Below are positions 15,181 through 43,862 of a DNA stretch of 64,000 nucleotides, in pieces. The notes below the pieces were generated by a model, which ran no database searches, was not told the origin of the DNA, and was given only the letters and a program-made list of their open reading frames with translations. This DNA is from Escherichia coli (GTDB lineage Bacteria; Pseudomonadota; Gammaproteobacteria; Enterobacterales; Enterobacteriaceae), in the NCBI RefSeq assembly GCF_003019035.1, contig NZ_CP027447.1. One strand, 5' to 3'. Position numbers and translations under genes: made by a program. Positions within the stretch are counted from its first letter, which is position 1. Every line of letters begins with the position of its first letter.

Positions 15181-15499
15181 GGTGTTATGTTTTTAAATTT
15201 AATGCAAATGCTGAAAATTACATGTTTTGTATTCTGTTTTTGTTGTTTTAATGTAAATTTTGACCATTTGGTCCACTTTTTTCTGCTCATTTTGATTTCA
15301 TGCAATCTTCTTGCTGCGCAAGCGTTTTCCAGAACATGTTATATGATCTTTTTGTCGCTTAATGCCTGTAAAACATGCATGAGCCACAAAATAATATAAA
15401 AAATCCCGCCATTAAGTTGACTTTTAGCTCCCATATCTCCAGAATGCCGCCGTTTGCCAGAAATTCGTCGGTAAGCAGATTTGCATTGATTTACGTCAT

Positions 15500-15540
15500 C
15501 ATTGTGAATTAATATGCAAATAAAGTGAGTGAATATTCTC
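15500..15540 (+). promoter_or_regulatory. carAB P2 promoter region with tandem ARG-box-like operators
   Basis: TGTGAATTAATATGCAAATAAAGTGAGTGAATATTC immediately upstream of carA, recognised as the arginine-repressor operator pair at carP2. Confidence 0.55.
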
Positions 15541-27867: not shown

Positions 27868-28114
27868 TTAATTCCACTGTGAAAACGAATATTTATTTTG
27901 CGTTCCCGTTTGTTTTATTTTTGTTAACATTTAATATAATTATTATTAACCTCGTGGACGCGTTAATGGCTAACTCATAATGGGTATTCAATTGGCTGCG
28001 TTCTGTGATGTTAGTCACAGTTTTTTATCGGGTAAAAACAGGGCATCTTTGTGTAAATATTCATTGTTTATCAATGTGATGAGTTTGGTTGTGAGTAAAA
28101 AAATAGCATCTGAC

Positions 28115-28149
28115 TTTCAATATTGGTGATCCATAAAGCAATATTGAAA
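28115..28149. promoter_or_regulatory. Putative CaiF binding site 1: 11-bp inverted repeat with 13-bp spacer
   Basis: TTTCAATATTG (28115-28125), 13-bp spacer, CAATATTGAAA (28139-28149), in the cai-fix divergent control region; matches the reported CaiF site architecture as I recall it. Confidence 0.55.
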
Positions 28150-28171
28150 ATTTCTTTTTGCTACGCCATGT

Positions 28172-28206
28172 TTTCAATATTGGTGAGGAACTTAACAATA
28201 TTGAAA
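28172..28206. promoter_or_regulatory. Putative CaiF binding site 2: same inverted repeat with 13-bp spacer
   Basis: TTTCAATATTG (28172-28182), 13-bp spacer, CAATATTGAAA (28196-28206). Confidence 0.55.
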
Positions 28207-28230
28207 GTTGGGTTTATCTGCGTGTGACAT

Positions 28231-28245
28231 TTTCAATATTGGTGA
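28231..28245. promoter_or_regulatory. Third copy of TTTCAATATTGGTGA without inverted partner
   Basis: Exact 15-mer shared with sites 1 and 2, preceded by GTGTGACA (CRP half-site-like), about 90 bp before fixA. Confidence 0.35.
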
Positions 28246-28336
28246 TTAAAGTTTTATTTCCAAATTAAAGGGCGTGATATCTGTAATTAACACCACCGAT
28301 ATGAACGACGTTTCCTTCATGATTTCTGGAGATGCA

Positions 28337-29107
28337 ATGAAGATTATTACTTGCTATAAGTGCGTGCCTGATGAACAGGATATTGCGGTCAATAATGCTG
28401 ATGGTTCGTTAGACTTCAGTAAAGCCGATGCCAAAATAAGCCAATACGATCTCAACGCTATTGAAGCGGCTTGCCAGCTAAAGCAACAGGCAGCAGAGGG
28501 GCAGGTGACGGCCTTAAGTGTGGGCGGTAAAGCCCTGACCAACGCCAAAGGGCGTAAAGATGTGCTATCGCGCGGTCCGGATGAACTGATTGTGGTGATT
28601 GATGACCAGTTCGAGCAGGCACTGCCGCAACAAACGGCGACCGCACTGGCTGCTGCCGCCCAGAAAGCAGGCTTTGATTTGATCCTCTGTGGCGATGGTT
28701 CTTCCGACCTTTATGCCCAGCAGGTTGGTTTGCTGGTAGGCGAAATCCTCAATATTCCGGCAGTTAACGGCGTCAGCAAAATTATCTCCCTGACGGCAGA
28801 TACCCTCACCGTTGAGCGCGAACTGGAAGATGAAACAGAAACGTTAAGCATTCCGCTGCCTGCGGTTGTTGCTGTTTCCACTGATATCAACTCCCCACAA
28901 ATTCCTTCGATGAAAGCTATTCTCGGCGCGGCGAAAAAGCCCGTCCAGGTATGGTCGGCGGCGGATATCGGTTTTAACGCAGAGGCAGCCTGGTCAGAAC
29001 AACAGGTTGCCGCGCCGAAACAGCGCGAGCGTCAGCGCATCGTGATTGAAGGCGACGGCGAAGAACAGATCGCCGCATTTGCTGAAAATCTTCGCAAAGT
29101 CATTTAA
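28337..29107 (+). CDS. fixA: Electron transfer flavoprotein beta-subunit homolog
   Basis: Recognised FixA N-terminus [18 protein letters not shown] at ATG 28337 (256 aa); the supplied ORF extends upstream. Confidence 0.9.
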
Positions 29108-29121
29108 TTACAGGGGATGCT

Positions 29122-30063
29122 ATGAACACGTTTTCTCAAGTCTGGGTATTCAGCGATACCCCTTCTCGTCTGCCGGAACTGATGAACGGTGCGCAGGCTT
29201 TAGCTAATCAAATCAACACGTTCGTCCTCAATGATGCCGACGGCGCACAGGCAATCCAGCTCGGCGCTAATCATGTCTGGAAATTAAGCGGCAAACCGGA
29301 CGAGCGGATGATCGAAGATTACGCCGGTGTCATGGCTGACACTATTCGCCAGCACGGCGCAGACGGTCTGGTGCTGCTGCCAAACACCCGTCGCGGCAAA
29401 TTACTGGCGGCAAAACTGGGTTATCGCCTTAAAGCGGCGGTGTCTAACGATGCCAGCACCGTCAGCGTACAGGACGGTAAAGCGACAGTGAAACACATGG
29501 TTTACGGCGGTCTGGCGATTGGCGAAGAACGCATTGCCACGCCGTATGCGGTACTGACCATCAGCAGCGGCACGTTTGATGCGGCTCAGGCAGACGCGTC
29601 ACGCACTGGCGAAACGCACACCGTGGAGTGGCAGGCTCCGGCTGTGGCGATTACCCGCACGGCAACCCAGGCGCGCCAGAGCAACAGCGTCGATCTCGAC
29701 AAAGCCCGTCTGGTGGTCAGCGTCGGTCGCGGCATTGGCAGCAAAGAGAACATTGCGCTGGCAGAACAGCTTTGTAAGGCGATAGGTGCGGAGTTGGCCT
29801 GTTCTCGTCCGGTGGCGGAAAACGAAAAATGGATGGAGCACGAACGCTATGTCGGTATCTCCAACCTGATGCTGAAACCTGAACTGTACCTGGCGGTGGG
29901 GATCTCCGGGCAGATCCAGCACATGGTTGGCGCTAATGCGTCGCAAACCATTTTCGCCATCAACAAAGATAAAAATGCGCCGATCTTCCAGTACGCGGAT
30001 TACGGCATTGTTGGCGACGCCGTGAAAATCCTTCCGGCACTGACCGCAGCTTTAGCGCGTTGA
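29122..30063 (+). CDS. fixB: Electron transfer flavoprotein alpha-subunit homolog
   Basis: 313 aa ORF, ETF alpha-like. Confidence 0.94.
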
Positions 30064-30113
30064 TCCACTCTGGCAGGGCTGCATTACGGCCCTGCCGCTG
30101 ACAGGGAGCTCTT

Positions 30114-31400
30114 ATGTCCGAAGATATCTTTGACGCCATCATCGTCGGTGCAGGGCTTGCCGGTTCGGTTGCTGCACTGGTGCTCGCCCGCGAAGGTGCG
30201 CAAGTGTTAGTTATCGAGCGTGGCAATTCCGCAGGTGCCAAGAACGTCACCGGCGGGCGTCTCTATGCCCACAGCCTGGAACACATTATTCCTGGTTTCG
30301 CCGAATCCGCCCCCGTAGAACGCCTGATCACCCATGAAAAACTTGCGTTTATGACGGAAAAGTCAGCGATGACTATGGACTACTGCAATGGCGACGAAAC
30401 CTCGCCATCCCAGCGTTCTTACTCCGTTTTGCGCAGTAAATTTGATGCCTGGCTGATGGAGCAGGCCGAAGAAGCGGGCGCGCAGTTAATTACCGGGATC
30501 CGCGTCGATAACCTCGTACAGCGCGATGGCAAAGTTGTCGGCGTAGAAGCTGATGGCGATGTGATTGAAGCGAAAACGGTGATCCTTGCTGATGGGGTGA
30601 ATTCCATCCTTGCCGAAAAGCTGGGGATGGCAAAACGCGTTAAACCGACGGATGTGGCGGTTGGCGTGAAGGAACTGATCGAGTTACCGAAGTCGGTTAT
30701 CGAAGACCGTTTTCAGTTGCAGGGTAATCAGGGCGCGGCTTGCCTGTTTGCGGGATCACCCACCGATGGCCTGATGGGCGGTGGCTTCCTTTATACCAAT
30801 GAAAATACCCTGTCGCTGGGGCTGGTTTGTGGTTTGCATCATCTGCATGACGCAAAAAAATCGGTGCCGCAAATGCTGGAAGATTTCAAACAACATCCGG
30901 CCGTTGCACCGCTGATCGCAGGCGGCAAGCTGGTGGAATATTCCGCTCACGTAGTGCCGGAAGCAGGCATCAACATGCTGCCGGAGCTGGTCGGTGACGG
31001 CGTACTGATTGCCGGTGATGCCGCCGGAATGTGTATGAACCTCGGTTTTACCATTCGCGGTATGGATCTGGCGATTGCCGCCGGGGAAGCAGCAGCAAAA
31101 ACTGTGCTTTCAGCGATGAAAAGCGACGATTTCAGTAAGCAAAAACTCGCGGAATATCGTCAGCATCTTGAGAGTGGCCCGCTGCGCGATATGCGCATGT
31201 ACCAGAAACTACCGGCGTTCCTTGATAACCCACGCATGTTTAACGGCTACCCGGAACTGGCGGTGGGCGTGGCGCGTGACCTGTTCACCATTGACGGCAG
31301 TGCGCCGGAACTGATGCGCAAGAAAATCCTCCGCCACGGCAAGAAAGTGGGCTTCATCAATCTGATCAAGGATGGCATGAAAGGAGTGACCGTTTTATGA
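30114..31400 (+). CDS. fixC: FAD-dependent oxidoreductase (ETF-quinone oxidoreductase-like)
   Basis: 428 aa ORF with N-terminal FAD-binding GxGxxG (DAIIVGAGLAGS). Confidence 0.94.
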   Translation: MSEDIFDAIIVGAGLAGSVAALVLAREGAQVLVIERGNSAGAKNVTGGRLYAHSLEHIIPGFAESAPVERLITHEKLAFMTEKSAMTMDYCNGDETSPSQRSYSVLRSKFDAWLMEQAEEAGAQLITGIRVDNLVQRDGKVVGVEADGDVIEAKTVILADGVNSILAEKLGMAKRVKPTDVAVGVKELIELPKSVIEDRFQLQGNQGAACLFAGSPTDGLMGGGFLYTNENTLSLGLVCGLHHLHDAKKSVPQMLEDFKQHPAVAPLIAGGKLVEYSAHVVPEAGINMLPELVGDGVLIAGDAAGMCMNLGFTIRGMDLAIAAGEAAAKTVLSAMKSDDFSKQKLAEYRQHLESGPLRDMRMYQKLPAFLDNPRMFNGYPELAVGVARDLFTIDGSAPELMRKKILRHGKKVGFINLIKDGMKGVTVL

Positions 31401-31684
31401 CTTCTCCCGTCAATGTGGACGTCAAACTGGGCGTCAATAAATTCAATGTCGATGAAGAGCATCCGCACATTGTTGTGAAGGCCGATGCCGATAAACAGGC
31501 GCTGGAGCTGCTGGTGAAAGCGTGCCCCGCAGGTCTGTACAAGAAGCAGGATGACGGCAGTGTGCGCTTCGATTACGCCGGATGTCTGGAGTGCGGCACC
31601 TGTCGCATTCTGGGGCTGGGGTCGGCGCTGGAACAGTGGGAATACCCGCGCGGCACCTTTGGTGTGGAGTTCCGTTACGGCTGA
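31397..31684 (+). CDS. fixX: Ferredoxin-like protein
   Basis: 95 aa ORF with Cys cluster, overlapping the fixC stop. Confidence 0.93.
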   Translation: MTSPVNVDVKLGVNKFNVDEEHPHIVVKADADKQALELLVKACPAGLYKKQDDGSVRFDYAGCLECGTCRILGLGSALEQWEYPRGTFGVEFRYG

Positions 31685-31741
31685 TGTTGGTTTGATAAGT
31701 AACGCCGCACTGAATCTCATTGCAAAAAACAGGAATAACCC

Positions 31742-33073
31742 ATGCAACCGTCCAGAAACTTTGACGATCTCAAATTCTCCTCTATTCACCGCCGCATTTT
31801 GCTGTGGGGAAGCGGTGGTCCGTTTCTGGATGGTTATGTACTGGTAATGATTGGCGTGGCGCTGGAGCAACTGACTCCGGCGCTGAAACTGGACGCTGAC
31901 TGGATTGGCTTGCTGGGCGCGGGAACGCTCGCCGGGCTGTTCGTTGGCACATCGCTGTTTGGCTATATCTCCGATAAAGTCGGACGGCGCAAAATGTTCC
32001 TCATTGATATCATCGCCATCGGCGTGATATCTGTGGCGACGATGTTTGTCTCATCCCCCGTCGAACTGTTGGTGATGCGGGTACTTATCGGCATTGTCAT
32101 CGGTGCGGATTATCCCATCGCCACCTCAATGATCACCGAGTTCTCCAGTACCCGTCAGCGGGCGTTTTCCATCAGCTTTATCGCCGCGATGTGGTATGTC
32201 GGCGCGACCTGCGCCGATTTGGTCGGCTATTGGCTTTATGATGTGGAAGGTGGTTGGCGCTGGATGCTGGGTAGCGCAGCGATCCCCTGTTTGTTGATTT
32301 TGATTGGTCGATTCGAACTGCCTGAATCTCCCCGCTGGTTGTTACGCAAAGGGCGAGTAAAAGAGTGCGAAGAGATGATGATCAAACTGTTTGGCGAACC
32401 GGTGGCTTTCGATGAAGAGCAGCCGCAGCAAACCCGTTTTCGCGATCTGTTTAATCGCCGCCATTTTCCTTTTGTTCTGTTTGTTGCCGCCATCTGGACC
32501 TGCCAGGTGATCCCCATGTTCGCCATTTACACCTTTGGCCCGCAAATCGTTGGTTTGTTGGGATTGGGAGTTGGCAAAAACGCGGCGTTGGGGAATGTGG
32601 TGATTAGCCTGTTCTTTATGCTTGGCTGTATTCCGCCGATGCTGTGGTTAAACACCGCCGGACGGCGTCCATTGTTGATTGGCAGTTTTGCCATGATGAC
32701 GCTGGCGCTGGCGGTTTTGGGGCTGATCCCGGATATGGGGATCTGGCTGGTAGTGATGGCATTTGCGGTGTATGCCTTTTTCTCTGGCGGGCCGGGTAAT
32801 TTGCAGTGGCTCTATCCTAATGAACTCTTCCCGACGGATATCCGCGCCTCTGCCGTGGGCGTGATTATGTCCTTAAGCCGTATTGGCACCATTGTTTCGA
32901 CCTGGGCACTGCCAATCTTTATCAATAATTACGGCATCAGTAGCACCATGCTGATGGGGGCGGGTATCTCGCTATTTGGCTTGTTGATTTCCGTAGCGTT
33001 TGCTCCGGAGACTCGAGGGATGTCACTGGCGCAGACCAGCAATATGACGATCCGCGGGCAGAGAATGGGGTAA
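31742..33073 (+). CDS. yaaU: MFS-family transporter
   Basis: 443 aa polytopic ORF in the conserved position after fixX. Confidence 0.88.
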   Translation: MQPSRNFDDLKFSSIHRRILLWGSGGPFLDGYVLVMIGVALEQLTPALKLDADWIGLLGAGTLAGLFVGTSLFGYISDKVGRRKMFLIDIIAIGVISVATMFVSSPVELLVMRVLIGIVIGADYPIATSMITEFSSTRQRAFSISFIAAMWYVGATCADLVGYWLYDVEGGWRWMLGSAAIPCLLILIGRFELPESPRWLLRKGRVKECEEMMIKLFGEPVAFDEEQPQQTRFRDLFNRRHFPFVLFVAAIWTCQVIPMFAIYTFGPQIVGLLGLGVGKNAALGNVVISLFFMLGCIPPMLWLNTAGRRPLLIGSFAMMTLALAVLGLIPDMGIWLVVMAFAVYAFFSGGPGNLQWLYPNELFPTDIRASAVGVIMSLSRIGTIVSTWALPIFINNYGISSTMLMGAGISLFGLLISVAFAPETRGMSLAQTSNMTIRGQRMG

Positions 33074-33180
33074 TTTGTTCAGATTTCTCTCTTTTCTGAA
33101 TCAATATTATTGACTATAAGCCGCGTGAATATATGACTACACTTTGTGGGAAAACAAAGGCGTAATCACGCGGGCTACCT

Positions 33181-33703
33181 ATGATTCTTATAATTTATGC
33201 GCATCCGTATCCGCATCATTCCCATGCGAATAAACGGATGCTTGAACAGGCAAGGACGCTGGAAGGCGTCGAAATTCGCTCTCTTTATCAACTCTATCCT
33301 GACTTCAATATCGATATTGCCGCCGAGCAGGAGGCGCTGTCTCGCGCCGATCTGATCGTCTGGCAGCACCCGATGCAGTGGTACAGCATTCCACCGCTCC
33401 TCAAACTTTGGATCGATAAAGTTTTCTCGCACGGCTGGGCTTACGGTCACGGCGGTACGGCGCTGCATGGCAAACATTTGCTGTGGGCGGTGACGACCGG
33501 CGGCGGGGAAAGCCATTTTGAGATTGGTGCGCATCCGGGCTTTGATGTGCTGTCACAGCCGCTACAGGCGACGGCAATCTACTGCGGGCTGAACTGGCTG
33601 CCACCGTTTGCCATGCACTGCACCTTTATTTGTGACGACGAAACCCTCGAAGGGCAGGCGCGTCACTATAAGCAACGTCTGCTGGAATGGCAGGAGGCAC
33701 ATC

Positions 33704-33711
<8 letters not shown>
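33181..33711 (+). CDS. kefF: KefC ancillary protein (flavodoxin-like quinone oxidoreductase)
   Basis: 176 aa [24 protein letters not shown]...; overlaps the kefC start. Confidence 0.94.
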
Positions 33712-36237
<2,526 letters not shown>

Positions 36238-36322
36238 GTTTGTATATTAGAAGTCCGGCATCACTAATACGTGCAGATATCCGTGTATACTAGACGTATA
36301 AATTGTACAGGAGCACGATATC
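36238..36322 (+). promoter_or_regulatory. Putative promoter/operator of the ccd-like cassette
   Basis: 85-bp AT-rich spacer after folA with dyad symmetry (ATACGT ... ACGTAT around GTATAC) and SD AGGAG 11 nt before the ccdA-like ATG. Confidence 0.4.
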
Positions 36323-36556
36323 ATGACTGCAAAACGTACCACACAAAGTGTGACCGTCACCGTCGACCGTGAGTTAGTCAATCGCGCTCGTGATGCAGGC
36401 TTAAATATGAGCGCCACCCTTACGGTTGCGCTCAATGCTGAACTTAAAAAACATGCAGCAACACGTTGGCGTGAAGAGAACACAGAAGCTATCGCTGCGT
36501 TAAATCAATTGGCTGATGAAACCGGATGTTTCTCTGATGAGTACCGGAGCTTCTAG
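36323..36556 (+). CDS. ccdA: CcdA-like antitoxin
   Basis: 77 aa ORF MTAKRTTQSVTVTVDRELVNRARDAGLNMSATLTVALNAELKKHAATRWREENTEAIAALNQLADETGCFSDEYRSF resembles F-plasmid CcdA as recalled (ribbon-helix-helix N-terminus, ...RWREEN... core, acidic C-terminus); 2 nt before the toxin gene. Confidence 0.75.
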   Translation: MTAKRTTQSVTVTVDRELVNRARDAGLNMSATLTVALNAELKKHAATRWREENTEAIAALNQLADETGCFSDEYRSF

Positions 36557-36558
36557 CG

Positions 36559-36873
36559 ATGCAATTTACGGTATACTGCAGTCGCGGCAGGAACGCCGCG
36601 TTTCCCTTTGTTATCGATGTTACCAGCGACATTATTGGTGAGATTAATCGCCGTATCGTTATTCCATTAACACCTATTGAACGATTTAGCCGTATTCGCC
36701 CACCAGAACGGCTTAATCCAATCCTTTTACTGGTAGATGGCAAAGAATATGTGCTCATGACGCATGAGACTGCAACTGTTCCAGTTAACGCGCTGGGAAC
36801 GAAATTTTGCGATGCCAGCGCGCACCGAACGTTGATTAAAGGAGCATTAGATTTTATGCTCGACGGGATTTAA
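36559..36873 (+). CDS. ccdB: CcdB-like gyrase-poison toxin
   Basis: 104 aa [40 protein letters not shown]... resembles F-plasmid CcdB as recalled (MQFKVY..., ...VDVQSDII..., C-terminal ...W/GI); SD GGAG inside the ccdA 3-prime end. Confidence 0.8.
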
Positions 36874-37718
36874 GACGCGGCCGCCTCTCCCTCACCCATA
36901 TCTTTATGCCGATTCGACGGCTGGACAAAATACTGTTTATCTTCCCAGCGCAGGCAGGTTAATGTCCCGCCCCAACAGCAGCCGGTATCCAGCGCGTAAA
37001 TACCTTCCGGCGTACCTTTGCCCTCCAGCGATGCCCAGTGACCAAAGGCGATGCTGTACTCTTCAGCGACGGGGCCAGGAATCGCAAACCACGGTTTCAG
37101 TGGGGCAGGGGCCTCTTCCGGCGATTCTTTGCTGTACATATCCAGTTGACCGTTCGGGAAGCAAAAACGCATACGGGTAAAGGCGTTGGTGATAAAACGC
37201 AGTCTTCCCAGCCCCCGCAATTCCGGTGACCAGTTATTTGGCATATCGCCGTACATGGCATCAAGGAAGAAGGGATAGGAGTCACTCGACAGCACCGCTT
37301 CTACATCGCGCGCGCACTCTTTGGCGGTCTGCAGATCCCACTGCGGCGTGATCCCGGCGTGGGCCATCACCAGCTTTTTCTCTTCGTCGATTTGCAGCAG
37401 AGGCTGGCGACGCAGCCAGTTAAGCAGCTCGTCGGCATCCGGCGCTTCCAGCAGCGGTGTCAGGCGATCTTTCGGTTTATTGCGGCTGATCCCGGCAAAT
37501 ACCGCCAGCAGATGCAGATCGTGATTGCCCAGCACCAGACGTACGCTGTCGCCTAAGGATTTCACATAGCGCAGAACATCCAGCGAACCCGGGCCGCGCG
37601 CGACCAGATCGCCCGTCAGCCAGAGGGTATCTTTCCCAGGGGTAAATTCTACTTTATGCAGCAATGCGATCAGTTCATCGTAACAACCATGAACGTCGCC
37701 AATAAGGTATGTCGCCAT
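36870..37718 (-). CDS. apaH: Bis(5-nucleosyl)-tetraphosphatase (symmetrical)
   Basis: 282 aa [23 protein letters not shown]..., metallophosphatase motifs. Confidence 0.95.
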
Positions 37719-37724
37719 ATTCTT

Positions 37725-38102
37725 TTAATGAATGAGTGTGGGAACGGCGAGTCGGAATACGGGAATGTCGATGCTGAAAGGGACGCCATTTTCATCGATC
37801 ATTTCGTAGTGACCCTGCATGGTGCCCAGCGGGGTTTCAATGATTGCACCGCTGGTGTACTGGTACTCTTCGCCAGGCGCGATAAGTGGCTGGACGCCAA
37901 CCACTCCTTCGCCCTGGACTTCGGTTTCACGGCCATTGCCATTGGTGATCAGCCAGTAACGCCCCAACAACTGCACTGGCGCTCGCCCCAGATTGCGTAT
38001 GGTTACGGTATAAGCAAAAACGTAACGTTCATTATCAGGTGAAGATTGTGCCTCAATGTAGACGCTTTGAACCTGAATACACACTCGGGGCGAATTGATC
38101 AT
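37725..38102 (-). CDS. apaG: ApaG protein
   Basis: Recognised N-terminus [19 protein letters not shown] at ATG 38102 (125 aa); the supplied ORF extends 18 codons upstream. Confidence 0.9.
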
Positions 38103-38104
38103 CG

Positions 38105-41198
<3,094 letters not shown>

Positions 41199-41250
41199 AC
41201 TTTTTCCATTTCAATTAACCGCACTGCGGATTACGTGGTAAATCAACAAA

Positions 41251-43608
41251 TCACAAAGTGTTTTGATACGGCAGAATGTTCGAACGCAGCATCTCTTGCG
41301 TACCCAGACCGTAGTTGGAGCTCAGGCCGCGAAGTTCGATGTTAAAGCCGATTGCGTTGTCATATATCGCATGTTGTTTATCGTTATCCCAACCGTTCAG
41401 CTTACGCTCATAACCGACGCGAATCGCATAGCAGCAGGAGCTGTATTGCACACCTAACATTGAGTCGGCTTGCTTGTTCGCGTTGGTGTCGTAATAGTAC
41501 GCCCCGACAATCGACCAACGATCGGCGATTGGCCAGCTAGCGACTGCACCCACCTGCGAAATGCCGTTTTTAAACTGTTCATATGTGGAATAATAATTAG
41601 GCAGTGTCGCCTGTATATATTCCGGGCTGGCGTAGCGATAGTTCAGCTGTACCAGACGGTCTTCATCCCGACGGTATTCAATGCTGGTGTTACTGGTGGC
41701 TACGTTATCAAGACGAGTATCGTACTGAATACCGCCCCGCAATCCCCAGCGCTCGGAGATGCGCCAGTAGGTATCGCCAGCCCATACCAGTGAGCCCGTT
41801 TTGTCGTCATTCTCCCATGTTATGTTGTCATCGCCGGTGCGAGACTCCGTGAAATAGTAGATTTGACCAACGGAAATATTAAAACGTTCAACGGCTGCAT
41901 CATCATATACGCGTGTTGTGATACCGGTCGTGACCTGGTTTGCGGAAGCAACACGGTCAAGACCGCCATAAGTCCGGTCCCGGAACAGGCCCGAGTAGTC
42001 GGATTGCAACAGTGCGGAGTCATAGTTATAGATGTCGCTCTGATCGCGATACGGCACATACAGGTATTGTGCGCGCGGCTCCAGCGTCTGGGTGTAACCC
42101 GGCGCCAGCATTTCCATATCACGTTCGAAGACCATTTTGCCGTCAACTTTAAATTGCGGCATTACGCGGTTAACAGAATCTGCCAACTTATTGTTTTGCG
42201 GGTTGCTGTTATACCAGTCGAGATTGGTCTGCTGATAATGGGTAGCCAGCAGCTTCGCTTCGGTATTGATACTGCCCCAGGTGTTGGATAACGGCAGGTT
42301 GATCGTCGGCTCCAGATGAACGCGAGTAGCCTCCGGCATATTGCTGTTTGTATTAACAAAATGCACTGCCTGACCATAAAATCGGGTATCAAACGGGCCG
42401 AGATCGTTATGGTAGTAGTTGACGTCTAACTGCGGTTCAGCGGCATAGCTGTTGCCACTGGTATCATCAAAAACCTGGAATTGTTTATGCGAAAGCGTGG
42501 CGTCAAAGTTCTGCACCGCATAGCCCACGCTGAATTTTTGCGTGGCGTAGCCATCGGTACTGGAACCATATTTATTATCAAAATCATTGAAATAGGTCGG
42601 GTCGCTGACTTTGGTGTAGTCGATGTTAAAGCGCCAAACCTGGTCCATCACTCCGGAGTGTTGCCAGTAGAACAACCAACGGCGTGAATTGCTATCTTCT
42701 GGATGTTCATCTTCATAGACTTTATCCGAAGGCAGATAGTCCAGTTCCATCAAGCCTGCGCCCGCCTGGGTGAGATAACGGAATTCGTTTTCCCACATAA
42801 TGTTGCCACGACGATGCATATAATGCGGCGTGATGGTGGCATCCATATTTGGCGCGATGTTCCAGTAATACGGCAGGTAGAACTCAAAGTAGTTGGTGGT
42901 GGTGTACTTGGCGTTCGGGATTAAGAAACCAGAACGGCGTTTGTCACCCACCGGCAACTGTAAATAGGGGCTGTAAAAGATCGGAACCGGACCCACTTTA
43001 AAACGGGCGTTCCAGATCTCTGCGACTTGTTCTTCGCGGTCATGAATAATTTCGCTACCCACCACGCTCCAGGTATCAGAACCCGGCAGACAGGAGGTAA
43101 AAGTACCGTTATCCAGAATGGTATAGCGGTTTTCGCCACGTTGTTTCATCAGGTCCGCTTTACCGCGGCCCTGACGACCCACCATCTGGTAATCACCTTC
43201 CCAGACATTGGTATCTTTGGTGTTCAGATTCGCCCAGCCTTTCGGCCCTTTGAGGATCACCTGGTTATCGTCGTAATGGACATTACCTAGCGCATCAATG
43301 GTACGTACCGGCTCCGGTTGTCCTGGTGCCTCTTTTTGATGGAGCTGCACTTCATCGGCCTGCAGACGGCTGTTACCCTGCATGATATCCACGCTGCCAG
43401 TAAACACGGCGTCATCCGGGTAGTCCCCTTTCGCGTGGTCAGCATTGATAGTCACGGGTAAGTCATTGGTATCGCCCTGTACCAGAGGACGGTCATAGCT
43501 TGGCACGCCCAACATGCACTGAGAGGCGAGGTCGGCTGCCAGTCCCTGTTGACTATAAAGGGCGGTGGCAATCATGGTGGCCAGGAGAGTGGGGATACGT
43601 TTTTTCAT
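41251..43608 (-). CDS. lptD: LPS-assembly outer-membrane protein
   Basis: 785 aa ORF with signal peptide, recognised as LptD/Imp. Confidence 0.95.
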
Positions 43609-43862
43609 ACGTTGATTTTATTGTTCCATCATCGGTAACGTTGCGCGTGACAAACGGTCAGAGACTAACGTACTCGTCATCTCTACGCTAGTGTTAATCC
43701 TGTCCGAATAGCGTCAGTGGTGTTAGGCACGGCATTGAATGACAGGTATGATAATGCAAATTATAGGCGATGTCCCACAATTGACCGCAGCCGGAAAACG
43801 GTAAAAGCACCTTTATATTGTGGGAGATAGCCCTGATATCCGTGTGTCGATTTGGGGAATAT

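Follow-up and report, generated by a model that had tools for sequence, protein, structure and literature searches.

The spacer between folA and apaH in the stretch of Escherichia coli DNA analysed here (64,000 nucleotides of contig NZ_CP027447.1, hereafter the window) holds a two-gene cassette that is, almost certainly, a CcdA/CcdB module of the ccdO157 type, a chromosomal type II toxin-antitoxin (TA) operon. This confidence concerns the identification of the cassette, not the activity of the allele it carries. The original descriptions of ccdO157 as a type II TA islet are said to be those of Wilbaux 2007 and Mine 2009; their findings, and those of Gupta 2017, reportedly agree with the accounts given in reviews. 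Publications on the islet date from 2007-2009 onwards and cover where it sits, how it is distributed and how it decays; both genes are annotated in RefSeq, and the expectation of the original prediction that the system had probably been described already is confirmed by the reviews of ccdO157. The cassette therefore has little weight as a discovery, being a known and common islet. Its residual value is the documentation of a rare natural variant of the toxin, CcdB R7C, on the background of a common allele.

The left border of the islet is the core gene folA (dihydrofolate reductase; 35758..36237, + strand, stop codon at 36235-36237), which aligns with K-12 folA (b0048) and with the annotated folA of SCU-301, Sakai and Nissle. 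Position 36238 is the first base past this stop codon and opens a spacer of 85 bp (36238..36322, + strand), which, by analogy with F, is presumed to be the ccd promoter/operator. The ccdA-family antitoxin gene follows (36323..36556, + strand; ATG at 36323, TAG at 36554-36556), encoding 77 residues and corresponding to allele WP_000125568.1 (T54), and then the ccdB-family toxin gene (36559..36873, + strand; ATG at 36559, TAA at 36871-36873), encoding 104 residues and corresponding to allele WP_096987052.1 (C7, G10, E28). On the right, the convergent core gene apaH (diadenosine tetraphosphatase; 36870..37718, - strand) borders the islet, and its stop codon and that of ccdB overlap by 4 nt.

Within the cassette, a gap of only 2 nt (36557-36558) separates both genes. 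The Shine-Dalgarno sequence of ccdA (AGGAG, 36309-36313) is found 9 nt ahead of its ATG, and that of ccdB (GGAG, 36546-36549) is located inside the 3' end of ccdA, also 9 nt ahead of the start codon. This arrangement, a small antitoxin gene followed in the same orientation by the toxin gene, with a minimal gap and the translation signal of the second gene inside the first, is the layout of a type II TA operon. The two linked reading frames, their gap and the internal Shine-Dalgarno sequence had been predicted from the letters of the sequence, and a comparison with the list of open reading frames and the raw sequence shows those coordinates to be correct to the base. Both reading frames are intact and of full length, as opposed to the frameshifted and remnant copies present in two other E. 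coli genomes.

Family membership, genomic site and distribution

The 77-residue protein matches the Pfam CcdA family (PF07362) with E = 4.1e-26, its residues 8-77 aligning on positions 2-71 of the 71 of the model. This full-length match includes the N-terminal ribbon-helix-helix strand, whose sequence TVTVD is common to the window protein and the CcdA of the F plasmid, and the structure of the latter (PDB code: 2adl) is matched with E = 9e-6. For the 104-residue protein, the match to the Pfam CcdB family (PF01845) is also of full length, with residues 2-103 on positions 1-101 of 101 (E = 5.1e-31), and the E values against CcdB chains in the PDB range from 2e-16 (Vibrio fischeri, PDB code: 2kmt) to 1e-10 (F CcdB, PDB code: 1vub). 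The resemblance to CcdA and CcdB, which had been proposed from the sequence, is thus upheld by profile searches and by matches to solved structures, the latter also settling the fold.

On the other hand, neither protein reaches the whole-protein score that the NCBI curators set for the F-type equivalogs, as judged with the NCBIfam pair NF010264 and NF010262. The window CcdA reaches 38.9 of the 100 bits required, and the window CcdB 60.7 of 147; therefore, both proteins are members of the CcdA and CcdB families rather than equivalogs of the F proteins. The RefSeq names given to them in identical genomes, "type II toxin-antitoxin system CcdA family antitoxin" and "CcdB family protein", agree with these sub-equivalog scores. 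Also, none of the anti-phage defence families modelled in PADLOC matched either protein at E<=0.01, and membership of the pair in a defence system was rejected on this basis.

A comparison with F ccdAB (CcdA of 72 and CcdB of 101 residues) shows that both systems have in common the two Pfam families, the order and close spacing of the genes, the TVTVD strand, the final G-I of the toxin and the upstream motif GTATAC-N5-GTAT. However, the window CcdB is only 37% and the window CcdA 28% identical to the F proteins, the upstream region is of 85 bp instead of the 113 bp of the F operator, and the window system is chromosomal whereas that of F is plasmid-borne. Moreover, the C-terminal triad of F CcdB needed for gyrase poisoning, W99-G100-I101, is incomplete in the window toxin, which ends in ...FMLDGI and keeps only G-I (D102-G103-I104), with D102 in the place of W99. 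The best match among solved structures is the chromosomal CcdB of V. fischeri (PDB codes: 2kmt and 3jsc; E = 2e-16), whose C-terminus, ...DFLITGI, also lacks the F tryptophan when compared with ...DFMLDGI of the window; nevertheless, it belongs to another species and another genomic setting, and over the 103 residues aligned it is moderately identical to the window toxin.

Among plasmid-borne systems, the nearest relative found is the ccdA/ccdB pair of a Hafnia alvei plasmid (NZ_CP015380.1), whose CcdB is 73% identical to that of the window. Its proteins are also of 77 and 104 residues, the gap is also of 2 nt and the C-terminus is likewise FMLDGI, but the plasmid is mobilizable and the upstream region contains the inverted repeat GTGTAAgTTACAC and no GTATAC. 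Against this homologue, ccdA has a dN/dS of 0.15 and ccdB one of 0.07, values of which only the direction is meaningful because dS is saturated; within E. coli, the ccd genes show only 1-3 differences of each kind, too few for an informative dN/dS. The comparison with Hafnia marks ccdA and ccdB as real genes under long-term purifying selection at the protein level.

Regarding the genomic site, folA ends at 50302 and apaH starts at 50380 in K-12 MG1655, and the spacer between them, given in the original prediction as about 77 bp, is exactly 77 bp in the alignment of both loci; it holds a REP-type palindrome and no ccd genes. The window and K-12 have both junctions in common, the left one being ...TAA(T/G)TTTGTATA and the right one TTTAAGACGC. 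Since these junctions are shared, the cassette and the REP element of K-12 are alternative fillings of one site. The proposal that the cassette was inserted in the folA-apaH spacer was then right about the location, but the alignment shows that it is not a simple insertion into the K-12 spacer. Reviews describe ccdO157 in the same terms, as a genomic islet between folA and apaH of O157:H7, in a plastic site that holds REP sequences in other strains. A further alternative filling is apparent from the sequence of E. coli 2017-02-2CC, where the site (L006, 3341-4071) contains a 615-bp gene annotated as "IS1096 element passenger TnpR family protein" and, after it, a 72-nt remnant of the 3' end of ccdB.

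In O157:H7 Sakai, the same cassette occupies the same folA-apaH site as ECs_0052 ("CcdA-like") and ECs_0053 ("CcdB-like"), and it is also found there in NZ_CP124740.1, a genome deposited as EDL933. Sakai was preferred as the O157 reference because NZ_CP124740.1 measures only 5.14 Mb, about 0.36 Mb less than Sakai. The window and O157 cassettes share 98.4% of their nucleotides, 76 of the 77 residues of CcdA and 101 of the 104 residues of CcdB, as well as the junctions, the 4-nt overlap with apaH and the upstream GTATAC motif. This near-identity, together with a chromosomal location in the place of the 77-bp REP spacer of K-12, is what defines the ccdO157 islet. The predicted match to ccdO157 therefore stands for the cassette and its site but not for the allele, which differs at positions 7, 10 and 28 of CcdB and 54 of CcdA.

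The cassette is present in 2024 of the 5426 complete E. coli genomes (37%), always in the chromosome and always as a single copy, and is absent from the other 63%; in 102 complete genomes the identity is at least 99% over its 636 bp. Members of the protein cluster also come from Escherichia fergusonii. A decayed copy was observed in one E. coli genome, where a 13-nt deletion in ccdB leads to its annotation as frameshifted. No true plasmid carrying the exact cassette was found, the sole "plasmid" match of high identity being an 834-kb record that also holds apaH, and on genuine plasmids the closest relatives have a DNA identity of 64-74%; a plasmid origin of the exact cassette was rejected on these grounds. 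F-type ccdB, for its part, is very common on the plasmids of E. coli, with 2317 Escherichia plasmid records.

A minor difference was also noticed in the neighbouring apaH, whose product has 282 residues in the window versus 280 in K-12 (...DLGEAAAS), the cause being a 6-nt indel adjoining the ccd junction (window 36876-36900). The same 849-bp form of apaH occurs in Sakai, in Nissle and in the strain with the ccdB remnant, and it seems that this 3' end of apaH accompanies the ccd-type filling.

The upstream region

The 85-bp spacer ahead of ccdA is crowded with A+T-rich hexamers that are palindromic or nearly so: GTATAT (36242), TAATAC (36265), GATATC (36276), GTATAC (36285), GTATAA (36296), TGTACA (36304) and GATATC (36317). 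In addition, a 14-nt direct repeat, TGTATAyTAGAmGT, starts at 36241 and at 36284. The palindromes of the GTATAC type that characterize the upstream region of a ccd operon are therefore present in the sequence, as the perfect GTATAC at 36285-36290, the GTATAA located 5 nt further on, at 36296, and the GTATAT at 36242. The first two form the motif GTATAC-N5-GTAT (36285..36299, + strand), a putative operator core situated 38 nt upstream of the ATG of ccdA, which occurs a single time in the 64-kb window, where 0.08 occurrences would be expected by chance. The same arrangement, GTATACccgaaGTATGT, is found 33 nt upstream of the ATG of an F-type ccdA (L011). Then, this short upstream region keeps the core of the F operator although the proteins are only 28-37% identical to those of F.

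The F operator spans 113 bp and contains eight sites for CcdA, with one perfect and two imperfect GTATAC palindromes at its centre; its binding by chains in which CcdA2 and CcdB2 dimers alternate depends on their ratio (PMC5389731). In the window, the motifs starting at 36242, 36265, 36276, 36285, 36296 and 36317 fall within 2 nt of a grid of 10.7 nt anchored at 36242; the misfits are the palindrome at 36304, which is off by 3 nt, and the grid point near 36253, where there is no motif. By analogy, the 85-bp spacer may be a compact version of the F operator, a prediction under which alternating chains of CcdA2 and CcdB2 on a multi-site operator would repress the operon to a degree set by the toxin:antitoxin ratio. 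As a separate observation, a second perfect GTATAC is located at 36571-36576, 12 nt inside ccdB, so that two of the eight GTATAC sites of the 64-kb window lie in the 636-bp cassette.

With respect to transcription, a promoter scan of the 85-bp spacer gave no sigma-70 site reaching 9/12, and a strong sigma-70 promoter was rejected for this reason. The best hexamer resembling a -10 element is TATACT (36286-36291), which overlaps the GTATAC palindrome and is accompanied by a poor -35 element. The ccd promoter of O157 is reported to be weaker than that of F. Also, no terminator-like hairpin was found in the spacer between folA and ccdA. The ccd genes may plausibly be transcribed weakly on their own, by some read-through from folA, or in both ways.

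Two RNA elements were considered and rejected. A structured RNA in the folA-ccdA spacer is at odds with its folding (z = -0.02), and no Rfam family was detected in the cassette. A terminator-like hairpin inside ccdB (36583-36600) is perfect in the alleles with G10 and broken in the S10 allele of O157; as an internal attenuator it was attributed to chance, given a folding z of -0.47 against shuffled sequences and its absence from the Hafnia homologue.

The R7C allele and the activity of the module

The 18 kb around the cassette (window 28000-46000) are 100.0% identical to E. coli SCU-301 (NZ_CP051751.1), an isolate from a human rectal swab. Only three of the 5426 complete genomes reach at least 99% identity over this segment, which indicates a sparsely sampled lineage. 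Compared with O157, which has R7, S10 and V28 in CcdB and A54 in CcdA, the window allele has the changes R7C, S10G and V28E in the toxin and A54T in the antitoxin; as judged from these differences, the allele is distinct from that of O157. The host, matching SCU-301, is a non-O157 strain. The window CcdA is identical to that of BroCaecum-55, and R7C is the only difference between the window CcdB and WP_001160966.1, the common chromosomal allele of Nissle 1917 and BroCaecum-55.

The cysteine at position 7 arises from a C-to-T change at 36577. Because the Hafnia outgroup has R7, G10 and D28, the glycine at position 10 and an acidic residue at position 28 are probably ancestral, S10 and V28 being derived in O157 and C7 derived in the window. 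Both G10 and E28 are also common states. The variant is rare: the exact first 95 nt of the window ccdB are found in one of the 2021 ccd-positive complete genomes, which is SCU-301 itself, and the exact protein is present on 175 contigs of a large collection versus at least 1000 for the O157 allele.

For the O157 system, it is reported that the toxin targets gyrase and that the antitoxin is degraded by Lon, with an affinity of CcdB for gyrase about fivefold lower than that of F CcdB (PMC5543033). By inference from the characterised F and O157 systems, the window allele would be toxic, would have gyrase as its target and would come with an antitoxin labile to Lon. In such a mechanism, CcdB would bind the GyrA dimer and trap gyrase on cleaved DNA, leading to growth arrest and SOS induction, and a Lon-labile CcdA would neutralise the toxin. 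It is more probable than not that the window copy continues to be a functional TA pair. The tryptophan of the F triad replaced by aspartate, the scores under the equivalog cut-offs and the lack of a convincing sigma-70 promoter all count against reading the cassette as a TA operon of this type. Regarding the first of these, the effect of the aspartate in CcdB of the CFT073 type was called untested by one paper, yet the O157 toxin has the same C-terminal aspartate and is reported to target gyrase (PMC5543033).

The main alternative to an active pair is a decaying module, in which the antitoxin would be functional but CcdB R7C would be inactive or strongly attenuated, the cassette being a neutral relic heading for loss. 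Reports on chromosomal ccd describe a near-neutral evolution with frequent loss of the toxin, a toxin gene that is not under selection, and an inactive toxin in 21-30% of the natural ccdO157 variants tested. Since R7C is rare and about a fifth to a third of the natural toxins are inactive, this change could be among the inactivating ones; moreover, it is derived and non-conservative, the outgroup having arginine, and the frameshifted ccdB and the 72-nt remnant mentioned above show that decayed copies do exist in the genome set. However, the ccdB reading frame of the window is intact and of full length, and all its other residues are those of the common Nissle 1917 allele. Also, E. coli alleles have R, H or C at position 7, where V. 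fischeri CcdB has K and F CcdB has T; being so variable across the family, this position is not a conserved core residue, and a substitution in it does not necessarily disrupt the fold. It closes the first strand of the protein and is remote from the C-terminal helix, which bears the gyrase-binding residues in F CcdB. For these reasons, decay through R7C is a possible but doubtful reading, and an active pair is preferred.

A change at this position could also have an effect short of inactivation. One review links the specificity for the CcdA tail to Tyr8 of F CcdB versus an arginine in the chromosomal toxin, paired with Asn69 versus Tyr in CcdA. Residue 7 might then be a polymorphic hot spot adjoining the stretch of tail specificity, and R7C might alter the hold of the antitoxin or the toxicity of CcdB, as a natural "tuning" variant and not a neutral or dead one. 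This idea is speculative and we consider it quite improbable.

Another proposal concerns the role of the module. Here, the cassette would be kept for the benefit of the host as a stress or persistence switch, in which the Lon-mediated loss of CcdA frees an attenuated CcdB and provokes a reversible slow growth, with more drug-tolerant cells. Persister formation with ccdO157 was reportedly observed by Gupta et al. 2017, as summarised in reviews. At the folA-apaH locus of strain NRG857c, bile salts raise the expression of ccdB-1 8- to 32-fold, and a preprint associates chromosomal ccdAB with phylogroups B2, D and F, with frequent truncation of ccdB and with patterns of topoisomerase mutation, the mutations concerned being outside the QRDR. 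A link of the ccdO157 operon to drug-tolerant persisters is also cited in PMC5543033, but the same source notes that connections between TA systems and persistence are generally contested. Besides, the absence of the cassette from 63% of the genomes, the frequent loss of the toxin and the reported neutral evolution do not favour maintenance for host benefit. This reading is unlikely as an explanation of the cassette; it refers to biological role and not to molecular mechanism, and is compatible with an active ccdO157-type pair.

Lastly, that the chromosomal CcdA acts in anti-addiction, neutralising CcdB from F-type plasmids that enter the cell or are lost from it and sparing the host from post-segregational killing, has in its favour the abundance of F-type ccdB among plasmids, the demonstration of such a role for the chromosomal ccd of Erwinia chrysanthemi against F (as given in a review) and one 2024 review that ascribes to the chromosomal CcdA of O157 the ability to protect from F CcdB, but it is highly improbable, given that the window CcdA is only 28% identical to F CcdA and that the majority account, followed here, reports the opposite for ccdO157, with a chromosomal antitoxin without effect on the F toxin and an F ccd that still kills in the ccdO157 background (reviews including PMC5543033). 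According to this account, cross-neutralisation is one-way, the plasmid antitoxin neutralising the chromosomal toxin and not the reverse, and chromosomal ccdO157 gives no post-segregational killing (PMC5543033).

Other features of the window

In the flanks of the cassette, lptD stands out between 41500 and 43000, where each bin of 500 nt has 47-105 mismatches to Nissle 1917 and BroCaecum-55, whereas 0-20 are observed in nearly every other flank bin. This peak of divergence looks like a recombined or diversifying segment.

Nothing in the segment of K-12 used for comparison (12000-84000) corresponds to the first part of the window (1-6488); in K-12, rpsT has IS1A and nhaR as neighbours. This part of the window contains a chaperone-usher fimbrial operon on the - strand, with an usher (819-3269; NF011763, 1484 bits), a StcB-like chaperone (3282-3965) and a YehD-like major subunit (4015-4548). 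In the same part, a reading frame of 473 residues (4849-6270) gave no NCBIfam match and only a weak hint of pentapeptide repeats.

A second segment absent from K-12 is an insert of 1.4 kb between polB and araD (window 52274-53705), which contains three small reading frames on the + strand, of 116, 88 and 147 residues. None of the three matched an NCBIfam model, and the one of 147 residues shows a sub-threshold match to the Pfam family SMI1/KNR4 (SUKH-1, immunity-protein-like; E = 0.0097). Finally, two Rfam families score above their gathering thresholds in the window: the ES003 sRNA at 15452-15504 (+ strand, 87 bits) and a TPP riboswitch at 63300-63399 (- strand, 66 bits), upstream of the thi transporter operon.
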